Positions 36,169 to 63,264 of a DNA stretch of 64,000 bases are shown piece by piece. Made by a program: the position numbers and the translations under genes. Each line of letters starts with the position of its first letter. Within the stretch, counting starts at the first letter, position 1. This DNA comes from Octopus vulgaris (Eukaryota), in NCBI GenBank assembly GCA_951406725.2, contig OX597837.1, positions 40,548,001 to 40,612,000 of the forward strand, in the 5' to 3' direction. A model generated the notes under the pieces. It did no database searches. It saw nothing but the letters and a program-made list of their open reading frames with translations, and had not been told where the DNA came from.

Positions 36169-36354
36169 TATATATATATATATATATATATATATATATA
36201 TATATATATATATAAATAGATGAGTGTATTTTTACCTTGTTAACAATTAACACGGAAAAAATAAATAAATAGTTACCAGGGTAGCAAAAATCTCACAAGT
36301 ACAAATCCATCATTTTTTGCTAAAATGTCTTATTGACGAGTTTCGTTTTTTTCC

Positions 36355-36438
36355 CTTTCCTGAGGAGAAGATTGCATTGTTTATACCATTTATTCTTTTG
36401 AATAGTATCAGTGGAATTTTCGAAACATGTATCGAAAG
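36355..36438 (+). ncRNA. Type I hammerhead with extended stem II (family 2)
   Basis: CTTTC-CTGAGGA-GAAGATT...AATTTTC-GAAA-CATGTA-TC-GAAAG. Confidence 0.75.
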
Positions 36439-36520
36439 TAAAAATATTTGATTACACCTGCGTTAACTTCATTTTTTATTCATATATATATATATATATA
36501 TATATGTTCCATTCTAGCAA

Positions 36521-36566
36521 AAACTGTCTGATGAACGGCAACGAGAAACTCAGAGTAACAGATTTT
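36521..36566 (+). ncRNA. Type I hammerhead motif (family 3)
   Basis: AAACTGT-CTGATGA-ACG gcaa CGA-GAAA-CTCAGAG-TA-ACAG. One mismatch at the base of stem II. Confidence 0.75.
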
Positions 36567-37291
36567 GTTGATTTTTCTGCTGCTTAAAATAAAGTATATA
36601 TATATATATATATATATATATATATATATATATATATATATATATATTCGTAGATAGTCTTGCTTGGATACGGACACACACACACAATCACACGCATGCA
36701 TCGACATTTTATTTAGCGCTGACGAATTATATTTTTATATTAGTAAATGAGAATCTGCCATAACTAGAAATATCTTACATACCGCTGTTCCTCATTAAAT
36801 CTAATGCAAACATCATTTAATTGTTGCTGTCAAAATAACAAAACGTCTGATTACTGCTAATCTAATTAACAATTGTCATTGAAACTGGTGGAGTAAAATA
36901 TGTTTTATAATTTTCAACCAACAGGAAGCTTGGAAATGCAGTGTGGGATTGATTTGGGTTTAGGTTGCGTGGTTATACTCCATCTAGCGGTTGATGTGTA
37001 AGGTAACGTCTCTTGTTTACAATATCTCCTTTATTTGGTGTGGTACTGTTGTGGAAGGATTTCGATCCCCCCCACCACCACATCGCCAAGTGACCGAAAG
37101 TGGCCTGACATTGTTATAAATTACAGTCAGGCAGACGGACGGACAGACAGACAGACAGACAGACAGACAGACAGACAGACAGACAGACAGACGGACGGAC
37201 GGATGGATGGATGGATAGGTAGACGGACGGACGGAAGAACGGACTGACGGATGATGGATATATATATATATAGAGAGAGAGAGAGAGAGAG

Positions 37292-38596
37292 AGAGACGCG
37301 TTTAAAAGCCAGTTATACACACATACACACACACACGCACAAACACACACGTACACACACACACACACACATGCTTGTCTTTACGCATGTCAGTGTCTCA
37401 GAATCTCTGTATTTAAGGGTATGTGTAGGCATACATATGTTTATATAGATACACATATATAAATACATACATGTACATATATATGTATATCTATTCATCT
37501 CTATCTAACTATCTATCTATCTATCTATCTATCTATCTATCTATCTATCTATCTATCTACCTATCTATCTATCTATCTATCTGTCTGTCTGTCTGTCTGT
37601 CTGTCTGTCTGTTTGTCTTTCAGTCTATCTATCTATATATATAAATTCAGGGTGAATACTTGATAAATGTAAGCACCTGTATATGCCAGCTAGTAGCATA
37701 GGTGAGAGGATATATGTATCAAATGAAATAAATGAAAAACAGGGCACAAAGGATGTTGCGGTACATATGTTTCGAGCTCTATAGAACAACTTATCCTTAC
37801 ATCAATAAAGCTCGAAACATATGTACCCAACATCCTTTGTGTCCTGTTTTTCATTTATTTCATCTGATACATACATACATATATATATATATATATATAT
37901 ATATATATATATATATATATATATATATATATATATATATATATATATATATATATATATATATATATATATATATATATATATATATATATATATATAT
38001 ATATATATATATATATATGTATGTATGTATCAGATGAAATATATGAAAAACAGGACACAAAGGATGTTGCGGTACATATGTTTCGAGCTTTATTGATGTA
38101 AGGATAAGTTGTTCTATAGAGCTCGAAACATATGTACCGCAACATCCTTTGTGCCCTGTTTTTCATTTATTTCATTTGATACATATATCCTCTCACCTAT
38201 GCTACTAGCTGGCATATACAGGTGCTTACATTTATCAAGTATTCACCCTGAATTTATATATATAGATAGATAGACTGAAAGACAAACAGACAGACAGACA
38301 GACAGACAGACAGACAGACAGATAGATAGATAGATAGATAGATAGATAGATAGATAGATAGATAGATAGAGATGAATAGATAGATAGAGATGAATAGATA
38401 TACATATATATGTACATGTATGTATTTATATATGTGTATCTATATAAACATATGTATGCCTACACATACCCTTAAATACAGAGATTCTGAGACACTGACA
38501 TGCGTAAAGACAAGCATGTGTGTGTGTGTGTGTACGTGTGTGTTTGTGCGTGTGTGTGTGTGTATGTGTGTATAACTGGCTTTTAAACGCGTCTCT
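37292..38596. repeat. 1.3-kb inverted duplication centred on (TA)n, with a nested hairpin in each arm
   Basis: 37292-37878 is the reverse complement of 38019-38596. The ORF track shows mirror ORFs 37732(+)/38166(-) and 37498(-)/38390(+). Confidence 0.95.
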
Positions 38597-59821: not shown

Positions 59822-60170
59822 GGCACAGGAGTGGCTGTGTGAAGTAGCTTGCTAACCAACCACATGGTTCCTGGTTCAGTCCCACTGCGTGGCATCTTGG
59901 GCAAGTGTCTTCTGCTATAGCCCCGGGCCGACCAATGCCTTGTGAGTGGATTTGGTAGACGAAAACTGAAAGAAGCCTGTCGTATATATGTATATATATA
60001 TATATATGTATGTGTGTGTTTGTCCCCCTAGCATTGCTTGATAACCGATGATGTTGTGTTTACGTCCCCGTCACCTAGCGGTTCGGTAAAAGATACCGAT
60101 AGAATAAGTACTGGGCTTACAAATAATACGTCCCGGGGTCGATTTGCTCGACTAAAAGCGGTGCTCCAGA
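59822..60170 (+). mobile_element. SINE group A
   Basis: Head, internal microsatellite and 3' half up to GCTCCAG. Confidence 0.85.
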
Positions 60171-61464
60171 CAAAGACAGTGGAATAATGAAATAATGGCC
60201 AGATGGAAGATACACACAAAGAAAATGTTTGACAGTAATAGTGTGTGATAACACTGCTGGAAGCTTAAAAGATTTCGCAGAAAAATATATATTTATAAAT
60301 CAAGCGCAGAGACAATTCGTCTGTCAAGTCAAATATTTCATACCGCCAAACTGATGGTTCGTGAATCTTAAACAGCTGCTCGTCTCTCATAAAACCCAGC
60401 AATACCTTACAAAAAACATCATTGCTTGTATTCATGGTATCTGCATGTGTATATATAAAGATTTATATATGTATATATATATATAAATATATATATATAT
60501 ATATATATATATATATATATATATATAAACATATATATATATATATAAACATATATATACATATATATATATACATATATATATATATACACATATATAT
60601 ACATATATATATACATATATATATATATACACATATATATACATATATATATATATACATATATATATATATACATATATATATATATATATATATACAT
60701 ATATATATATATATACATATATATATACATATATATATATACACACAAACACACACACACAATATATATATATATATATATATATATATATATGATCAAT
60801 TTATATATATATGATCAATTTATATATATATATTATATACATACATACACTAATATTCTTAGCAACATTCATGTACATTCACAACAGTACGTACTCACAA
60901 GCAGCACTCTGCACACAGATGCACACTCGCATAAATACACTTCGTGTATGCATTCGAACATTCTAGATAGAAATATTCCAACTAAGATTCCGTTTTGCTG
61001 CAAGGTTGTAATCTTTATCTTTCCTGTATCAAATACATCAAACCATCCTTCTTTGTCTAAATTTTGGCACATCTTTCATCTTCAAAATATCTACTCTCTT
61101 TTCTTGTGCCTCTCATCCTTATCTCTTTCTTTTACACTTACTCGCCAAAGTAAAGAACCTTACTTATTGCCCCTCTACCTTGAGAAATTATTCCCATATC
61201 ATATTACCATAAGTCAACATGCTACAAATTTTATGATGCATTTCAATTCCTTTGACGTTTGACATCAGTTTGGACAATAATTATTAACGTTGTCAGCTAA
61301 AGTGAGTTACTTCTGACCTTTCCAAAACTATTGGGAAAGTAAAAGATATTAGAGCGTTCATTTGTTAACATCTTTCACGAATTTCTCCCCTACGGACTAT
61401 ATTTCAACCGGGATAAGTATTTAAGAGTTATTCATATCTAGTAAAGACACCATGTGTTAAGTTT

Positions 61465-62305
61465 TAGCTTGCTTACCAACCACATGGTTCTGGGTTCAGT
61501 CCTACTGTGTGGCACCTTGAGCAAGTGTCTTCTACTATAGCCTCGGGCCGAACAAAGCCTTGTGAGTGGATTTGGTAGACGGAAAGTGAAAGAATCCCGT
61601 CGTATATATGTATATATATATATATATATGTGTGTGTGTGCTTGTATGTCTGTGTTTGTTCCCCCTAGCATTGCTTGACAATCGATGCTGGTGTGCTTAC
61701 GTCTCCGTAACTTAGCGGTTCGGCAATAGTGACCGATAGAATAAGCTCTAGGCTTACAAAGAATAAGTCCTGGGGTCAATTTGCTCGACTAAAGGCGGTG
61801 CTCCAGCATGGCCGCAGTCAAATGACTGAAACAAGCAAAAGAGTAAGAGAGTATTGCAAAAACCACTCTCAGAGAAATCCTTCGGTTGTTTGGTACGATA
61901 CTTGCTTCCTCATCACATGGTTCTTGGTTCAGTCCCACTGCATGGCACCTTGGACAAGTGTCTTCAGCTATAGCCTCGGGACGACCGACGCCTTGCGAGA
62001 GGATTTGGTAGACGGAAACTGAAACACGTTGCATATATGTGTGTGTGTGTGTGTGTGTTTGTGTGTGTGTGTGTGTGTGTTTGTGTGTCTGTGTGTGCGT
62101 GTTTGTGTGTTATTATCTCCCAACACCGCATGAGAATTGGTGTTGGGTGTGTTTAAGTCACCGTTACATAGCGGTTCGGTAAATGGACCAATAGAATAAG
62201 AACTAGGCTTAAAAAAAAAGTTCTGGAGTCGATTCATTCGATTAAAATCTCTTCAAGGTGGTGCCTGCTACAGCATGGCCACAGTCTAATTGAAACAAAT
62301 AAAAA
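61465..62305 (+). mobile_element. Two tandem SINE group A copies (61465-61850 and 61900-62305)
   Basis: Body and tail motifs occur twice; the second copy is more diverged. Confidence 0.8.
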
Positions 62306-62434
62306 ATATCTATGTTGCTCATATATATATATATATATATATATATATATATATATATATATATATATATATATAATATATATATAAATATATGAAATTA
62401 TGGAGTTGAACGACCAATTAACAAAATTCCTTTA

Positions 62435-62517
62435 TTTTCGACATATGTTTCGAAGGCTGCATATTCCTAATTGCGAAGGAATAAGGAGTATATTATGCCG
62501 CTTTCTCATCAGGAAAA
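62435..62517 (-). ncRNA. Type I hammerhead with extended stem II, intact core
   Basis: Reverse strand TTTTC-CTGATGA-GAAAGCGGCATA...TATGCAGCCTTC-GAAA-CATATG-TC-GAAAA. Palindromic stem III ACAUAUGU and a GUC triplet. Confidence 0.87.
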
Positions 62518-63264
62518 GCAAGGAACTTATGTCAACATCAAGATGCACAAAAAACTTTTAGATGACTGCTCACACGGAGCCATATATATATATATATATA
62601 CATGCATAAAAATACACACACATACATACACAAACACTGTTATACATACATTCATTCATACATATGTGTGTGTGTGTGTGTGTGTGTGTGCATACACGGC
62701 GGTCTGCCTGCCACTGCCATTCGCAAGGCTTTACTCGGCCCGTTATAGCGTATCAGCTTCACGAAAATCTTGATCAAGCACCTACGCACCTTCTCCAGGC
62801 CAAACTATCTTAGCTGCAAGGCCACGTTATCTTACGGGATTCCCCTCACACAAAACAGTAGAGTTTTGCATGAAGGAGATCTAAATACTCTTTCTACCAA
62901 ATCAAGTGACACAAGGTTGTCCATTTGTTGTTAGATATTAGCGACCGGTGTTCCTTAAACGACCAGTTAATATTCATCTCAGCTATAATGTAAACGATAT
63001 CGCTTACTGTTTTAAGATTTATACAAATTTCCTTTGGCACTGAAGCGAAAATTATATTTAATGACGCGAATTTGATAAAAGTTATTTAAATATTTTATAT
63101 GAAATCGTCCATTATTTGTTGATGATAACACGTTAACATATAAATTCAATGCAGAAATTTACTCAGCTAAATTCAAGATGGCGCTTATCTTGTTTTATTA
63201 TTATTATTATTATTGTTGTTGTTGTTGTTGTTATTGTTGTTGTTGTATATACGTGTATGCAAAA

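Follow-up and report, generated by a model that had tools for sequence, protein, structure and literature searches.

A 64-kb stretch of Octopus vulgaris DNA (contig OX597837.1; the window below is this whole stretch) holds three motifs, near 36, 45 and 62 kb, that resemble hammerhead ribozymes with a second arm more than twice as long as standard motif searches allow. What are these ribozymes, and is the long arm an arbitrary insert or a part of their structure? The initial annotation, made from the letters alone, described hammerheads with sequence-variable stem II insertions and proposed selection on ribozyme structure. Our analysis supports that reading in part; it had overlooked a high-copy, (TA)n-targeting repeat that resembles the tail of a Penelope-like element (PLE). 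We consider it likely that the motifs are the hammerheads of the 3′ ends (pseudo-long terminal repeats, pseudo-LTRs) of (TA)n-targeting PLEs of at least two families, left as short, 5′-truncated and decaying copies.

Three type I hammerheads and their detection

By sequence and predicted fold, the three motifs appear to be real type I hammerheads. They lie where the initial annotation had placed them, and the 50–60 nt that it counted between CUGANGA and GAAA are confirmed as stems II of 55, 58 and 54 nt at 36, 45 and 62 kb. The 36-kb copy (36355–36438, forward strand) has a proximal stem I of 5 bp formed by 36355–36359 with 36434–36438, CUGANGA at 36360–36366, stem II at 36367–36421, GAAA at 36422–36425 and C17 at 36433 (positions in the customary hammerhead numbering). 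The 45-kb copy (45213–45301, reverse strand) has CUGANGA at 45295–45289, stem II at 45288–45231, GAAA at 45230–45227, C17 at 45219 and a 6-bp proximal stem I. The 62-kb copy (62416–62536, reverse strand) is the best preserved: CUGANGA at 62512–62506 and stem II at 62505–62452 are followed by GAAA at 62451–62448, a palindromic helix III and C17 at 62440, and the 5-bp stem I continues beyond a 2×2 loop for 16 further pairs. The predicted energy of this stem I duplex, −17.0 kcal/mol, is equalled by none of 500 shuffles.

The catalytic core (CUGANGA, GAAA and UH) and the G10.1–C11.1 pair are present in all three copies, and after stem II each continues with GAAAC, a near-palindromic helix III octamer (ACAUGUAU at 36 kb, ACAUGUGU at 45 kb and ACAUAUGU at 62 kb) and then a stem I of 5–6 bp. 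The 62-kb octamer is predicted to pair fully with itself (−7.0 kcal/mol). The helix III pairs 15.1–16.1 and 15.2–16.2 are formed at 45 and 62 kb and broken at 36 kb, and a helix of this length would not be stable within a monomer. The cleavage triplet is GUC in the 45-kb and 62-kb copies; at 36 kb it is AUC and the C15.2–G16.2 pair is lost. The flanks said to be shared by the 36-kb and 45-kb copies align at 71% identity over 179 columns, and their stem I pairs, CUUUC/GAAAG against UUUCC/GGAAG, differ as had been written. Three further candidates (CUGACGA at 36719, and sites at 28361 and 22898) were dropped for want of a valid helix III or stem I, and nhmmer and a covariance model built from the three copies return only those three at meaningful scores in the window.

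A pattern drawn from these copies matches three times in the window and not once in 100 dinucleotide shuffles. As a control for chance we used a near-identical pattern, which has 59 matches in viral (5) and metagenome (54) contigs, none of them homologous. Stem I reaches at least 5 bp in only two of these 59 matches and at least 3 bp in three, so that its closure in all three window copies is unlike what chance matches display. The family-specific pattern has no match in prokaryote genomes or in viral contigs. Nine of the metagenome loci (L011, L025, L030–L032, L034, L043, L051 and L055) have in common a motif in which CUGANGA precedes a short hairpin and UGAA between complementary flanks; it may be a different hammerhead, unrelated to the long-arm copies.

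The expectation that the copies escape standard models was borne out. Rfam gave no match at the gathering score over the whole window, and an E-value scan gave only microsatellite artefacts among 150 of its 582 matches. A local search with RF00163 (Hammerhead_1) scores the 62-kb copy at 25.5 bits (E 0.0002) and the 45-kb copy at 24.4 bits (E 0.00047), under the cut-off of 34, with no match to the 36-kb copy at E up to 10. For both scored copies the core and stems I and III align to the model position by position, while stem II is passed over as a local end of 50–54 nt. The published minimal descriptor of PLE hammerheads (PMC4209133) allows a stem II of 7 bp with a 10-nt loop (24 nt at most), and all three copies would therefore escape it.

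A shared stem II in a high-copy family

Against shuffled sequence the fold of stem II is clear at 36 kb (z −4.15), weaker at 62 kb (z −1.89) and no better than shuffles at 45 kb (z about −0.01 to −0.04), where the arm as it now stands is closed by 2 bp only; the claim that all three arms close as stems thus stood for two copies. The description of stem II as a sequence-variable insertion did not survive, as the three stems II align and share one architecture: a basal helix, a bulge on the 5′ side and an apical hairpin. Given the three copies aligned by MAFFT, RNAalifold predicts both stems without being told of them: stem I as 5 bp, a 2×2 loop and 6 bp, and basal stem II as 6 bp, a 2×2 loop and 5 bp; 7 of the 25 pairs are changed on both sides. 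Across 22 named pairs, 89% of cells pair, against 36–61% when the partners are slid, and seven pairs show double-sided changes, against 0–3 when slid. Seven such changes are reached by 11 of 500 shuffles, a control that ignores relatedness. Inspection by eye led us to discard a pseudoknot that would join the bulge of stem II to the 3′ strand, as its registers differ among the copies.

The 45-kb copy also gave access to its family, through contigs from four of eight listed public sequencing runs (organisms A–D) mapped onto 45172–45440 at 80% likeness. Matching contigs occur in all four runs, with 1242, 1307, 488 and 873 records in A to D. They span 45172 to about 45375 and none passes that point; depth over 45361–45369 is 1–2% of that in the core. 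The records end at 45174–45182, and the loose ends on the 3′ side are rich in A+T and agree poorly (0.60–0.66), as for dispersed copies. Summed depth is some 700–8500 times the median depth of eight long pieces of each run, a rough figure and not a copy number. The 45-kb family (family A) is thus a dispersed repeat in four organisms, and we give its size only as roughly thousands of copies because contig depth is no copy number. One single contig over 45221–45310 contains an opposite-strand joint, and two single contigs over the same interval carry deletions of 41 and 49 nt, respectively, across stem II.

Within stem II the 45-kb copy departs from the family majority at eight positions in all four runs, and four of the eight break predicted pairs. 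Substituting the majority letters repairs the broken pairs and takes the arm from z −0.04 to z −3.09, with 1 of 300 shuffles as good. The other letters found at predicted stem II pairs keep or restore the pair in 10 of 11 cases, and those in stem I in three of five. For minor variants in 13 basal stem II positions, six of seven pair (P 0.001–0.008 under a simple substitution model, 0.003–0.02 without the CpG site). No variant reaches 5% in CUGAAGA, GAAA, or positions 15.2, 16.2 and 16.1; the exceptions in the core are C17 and C11.1, both at CpG. The AUC change of the 36-kb copy stays below 5% in the contig set of every run, and a helix III variant at 45223, present in 29–49% of the family, produces a perfect palindrome.

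The stem II of the 36-kb copy matches the family majority at 47 of 58 positions and the 45-kb copy at 42 of 58; that of the 62-kb copy matches the majority at 32 of 58, and blastn at E 1e-4 does not match the 62-kb fragment to family A. Judged by its sequence, the 62-kb copy is the representative of a second family (family B). Above the basal helix, both the majority sequence of family A and the 62-kb copy are predicted to fold into a 12-nt 5′-side bulge and an apical UAUUCC/GGAAUA hairpin. Because the two have this bulge and hairpin in common, the predicted folds indicate that the long stem II is a homologous structure conserved across the copies and not a variable insert. The proposal of selection on ribozyme structure gains from the seven doubly changed pairs; it needs correcting as to where selection acted, namely on the source elements and not on the copies in this genome, where decay is plain to see in two of the three.

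Probable Penelope-like identity and competing explanations

Each motif sits in a fragment of about 200–270 nt between (TA)n tracts. The family A fragment at 36215–36481 (forward strand), a decayed element remnant, begins after a TA tract that ends 145 nt before C3, and the next tract begins 48 nt after C17. The second family A fragment (45177–45365, reverse strand; 5′ limit approximate) adjoins (TA)n at its 3′ end with a tail of 42 nt. The family B fragment (62387–62582, reverse strand) has its flanking tracts 70 nt before C3 and 53 nt after C17. The 3′ end therefore meets (TA)n 42–53 nt past the cleavage site in all three copies; as background, 5.8% of non-TA positions have a (TA)n tract 35–65 nt downstream. 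The 5′ ends are unequal, as C3 comes 70, 120 or 145 nt after the last TA tract in the three copies, and depth falls towards the 5′ side, which subfamily divergence could also cause.

This anatomy recalls PLEs, whose copies are described as 5′-truncated and often accompanied by inverted ones; here and below, comparisons with published work refer to the sections and listings of the papers on which we draw. PLE pseudo-LTRs carry type I hammerheads with a short or palindromic helix III that are mostly solo and cleave weakly, as dimers only (Cervera and de la Pena 2014, PMC4209133). The hammerheads of that study resemble ours in type, in a stem I of 4–6 bp, in G10.1–C11.1 and in the short palindromic helix III, and they too number in the thousands, are mostly solo and form consensus families in which compensatory changes are seen. 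They differ in that the metazoan helix II is at most 7–8 bp long, against 54–58 nt with a bulge and an apical hairpin in the window copies, and in that helix III lacks an insert in their minimal form, where the window copies have an 8-nt palindrome. The Hydra-clade families of Craig et al. (2021, PMC8557442) prefer (TA)n in all but 1 of 27 cases, carry a hammerhead near the 3′ end, and have a helix III that is mostly a 4-bp palindrome with a loop of 0–2 nt; Hydra-1_Amil ends 47 nt past its cleavage site by our count. Among those listed, however, all stems II are short, no Hydra protein was found among the frames surveyed in the window, and motif searches of the supplement of PMC8557442 did not find the window families.

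The (TA)n preference seen in all three copies is common to Naiad as well and is therefore not diagnostic of the Hydra or Neptune clade. The Naiad cases labelled 'HHR_half_core' (PMC8557442) have core halves 35–50 nt apart in (TA)n-targeting PLEs, but are described as unfit for stem descriptors, while the window copies have all three helices; identity with Naiad was ruled out by eye against the 3′ ends of Naiad_Ovul and Naiad_Obim and by motif searches of the same supplement. The nearest parallel in arm length is PLE-X1_sMoe of a spike moss (PMC8557442), a PLE type I hammerhead with a stem II of 9 bp and a 35-nt loop (about 53 nt by our count). It is nonetheless a single family, from a plant, endonuclease-less, targeting 28S rDNA, marked as deviating and, in the passages that describe it, not treated as a conserved structure. 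Non-LTR retrozymes (Cervera and de la Pena 2020, PMC7229834; Li et al. 2026) share a type I hammerhead in non-coding, high-copy animal DNA, but are defined by tandem units, whereas the window copies are solo, with arrays elsewhere in the genome possible. Judged from listings and passages of the literature, we found no account of a conserved stem II of 54–58 nt in animal PLE hammerheads. Hammerheads of PLE tails are already known, and what appears to be new here is the conserved, compensated long stem II in animal families.

Several observations weigh against this assignment. We infer PLE membership from anatomy because no PLE reading frame was found: among the 150 longest of 306 unmasked frames there is no remnant of a reverse transcriptase (RT) or GIY-YIG nuclease, and neither family is tied to a PLE protein, an absence that is expected for short truncated copies. 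No tandem pseudo-LTR was seen in the window. The lowest-energy free fold is not the hammerhead in any copy, and constraining it costs 7.1, 10.8 and 3.4 kcal/mol; distal stem I at 36 and 45 kb is matched by 130 and 109 of 500 shuffles; and the predicted self-duplex of ACAUGUGU is an off-register 6 bp instead of the catalytic register. A stem I variant at 45217 reaches 30–41% in three runs and 1% in the fourth, and the partner change at 45297 never exceeds 5%; the 36-kb copy carries the equivalents of both changes, and the contigs are unlinked. Related sequences can beat shuffles without any structure, and three copies are too few for significance of the R-scape type.

Could the fragments instead be short non-autonomous units, either solo retrozyme monomers or units like short interspersed elements (SINE-like), that arose from PLE tails and depend on PLE proteins in trans for their movement, and not truncated copies of a coding element? 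The small size of the fragments, their lack of any coding remnant in the frames surveyed and the drop in depth over the roughly 70 nt that precede the core would all fit, as would a preprint that argues for an origin of animal retrozymes from PLE pseudo-LTRs and for their frequent dispersal as monomers (Li et al. 2026, 10.64898/2026.07.22.740005). The motif is, however, absent from tandem arrays (among 150 of 200 reported by Tandem Repeats Finder) and from any tandem array in the window self-comparison, no head-to-tail joint occurs among the joints listed for the contigs, and the 5′ ends are unequal; we regard this explanation as unlikely. We think it slightly more doubtful that the fold is a PLE tail signal from which cleavage has been lost, the long stem II blocking the docking of stems I and II and the structure being kept for protein binding or as an RT start. 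That a helix of 11–13 bp replaces the usual short loop II, and that the hammerhead is not the lowest-energy fold, speak for such a loss, as does the Anolis element, the one PLE tested in vitro, whose insertion was unaffected by hammerhead mutants and whose cleavage required the element's protein. Yet both diverged families retain an intact catalytic core, which does not vary among the family variants, and the 45223 variant yields a perfect helix III palindrome.

Domestication of these loci as host ribozymes finds encouragement in the good preservation of the 62-kb copy, and is very improbable in view of the lost C15.2–G16.2 pair at 36 kb, the eight off-majority stem II letters at 45 kb and the microsatellite-rich setting of all copies, where no gene was found among the frames surveyed. 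As for chance matches in A+T-rich DNA, the search pattern was derived from the copies themselves and strands rich in U and A pair easily; with no match in the 100 shuffles, stem I closure far above that of outside matches, the RF00163 E-values and a conserved high-copy family, we give this explanation practically no weight.

Relatives in the window, proposed mechanism and implications

A fold-back relative, labelled family C, lies at 38020–38185 (forward strand). It has a central 40-nt hairpin (38085–38124) with GAAAC-AUAU-GUA and a tail on both sides; the tail ends in TTCAT, as in the other copies, and CUGANGA is absent, with an inverted copy in its place. The centre folds at −10.1 kcal/mol in one orientation against −5.0 in the other, again with a 5′-side bulge, and the modelled fold suggests that the hairpin is a stem II. 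We infer that in this element the complementary DNA (cDNA) folded back at stem II and served as its own template; the competing reading is a miniature inverted-repeat element. An inverted truncated relative matches a described PLE habit. The mirror copy of the 38-kb element (37715–37870, reverse strand) is part of a palindrome (37300–38590) that is nearly perfect, measures about 1.3 kb and is centred on a long (TA)n tract; we count the two copies as one event. The palindrome may be an assembly fold-back artefact or a recent inverted duplication.

Other hammerhead motifs with short arms occur in the window. One at 46792–46845 (forward strand) is of type I, short and to all appearance intact. 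Its stem I has 7 bp as judged by eye, its helix III is ACAG/CUGU and its triplet GUA; it ends about 20 nt before (TA)n and resembles the Hydra-clade motifs presented by Craig et al. (PMC8557442). A further (TA)n-bounded family with a short stem II is found at 36505–36595 (forward), 42985–43150 (reverse), 34365–34495 and 43140–43175 (forward), with CUGAUGA in one copy, CCGAC.. in others, and inverted 5′ pieces at about 43143 and 34440; its 36.5-kb copy directly follows the long-arm copy, with which it shares a TA tract. A canonical type I hammerhead at 8804–8848 (forward; 6-bp stem I, 14-nt stem II, palindromic helix III ACUCGAGU and GUC) falls under the Rfam gathering score, and the next TA tract is 170 nt away.

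The window as a whole reads as non-coding animal DNA. Its G+C content is 22–41%, simple repeats make up 31%, and dispersed short repeats are numerous, with several SINE-like families of 10–20 copies each (for example 949–1111, 7877–8092, 17938–18294, and 8293–8664 against 51433–51799). None of the 150 frames searched reaches a Pfam cut-off, and weak matches in seven include neither RT nor GIY-YIG. Between trinucleotide arrays, unique pieces of 4774–5708 recur in 6396–7228 at a spacing of about 1.5–1.6 kb, two of the three at 100% identity, either through recent tandem duplication or as an assembly artefact.

Our sequence and folding data, taken with known PLE biology, suggest a model for the long-arm families. 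The RT and GIY-YIG nuclease of the element would insert cDNA into (TA)n beginning at the 3′ tail, and most insertions would stop after 100–300 nt. In a tandem transcript of a source element, two hammerheads would pair through helix III, which is self-complementary, and cleavage would follow after GUC, at a slow rate and probably aided by protein; solo genomic copies are probably inert because they have no partner hammerhead. The long stem II would be a fixed part of these families, its paired state kept by selection on the source elements, and we would guess that this arm offers the element's protein a structured handle or acts as a displaced partner of the stem I internal loop.

Tentatively, the copies could even mark an undescribed animal PLE lineage with stem II as a conserved extra domain, a site of protein binding or RT stalling at which cDNA fold-back makes inverted truncated copies. 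If so, the 38-kb element would preserve the trace of such a fold-back, since its inversion point lies among the five outermost pairs of a hairpin of this kind, and thousands of such ribozymes per genome would be unseen by current catalogues. Counts of animal hammerheads that rely on Rfam cut-offs or on the published descriptor come out too low, in this case by a family with roughly thousands of members, and PLEs reported as 'lacking' hammerheads merit a search with a longer stem II. Families that combine an intact core with a compensated long arm offer a system in which to test why hammerheads are retained in PLE tails.

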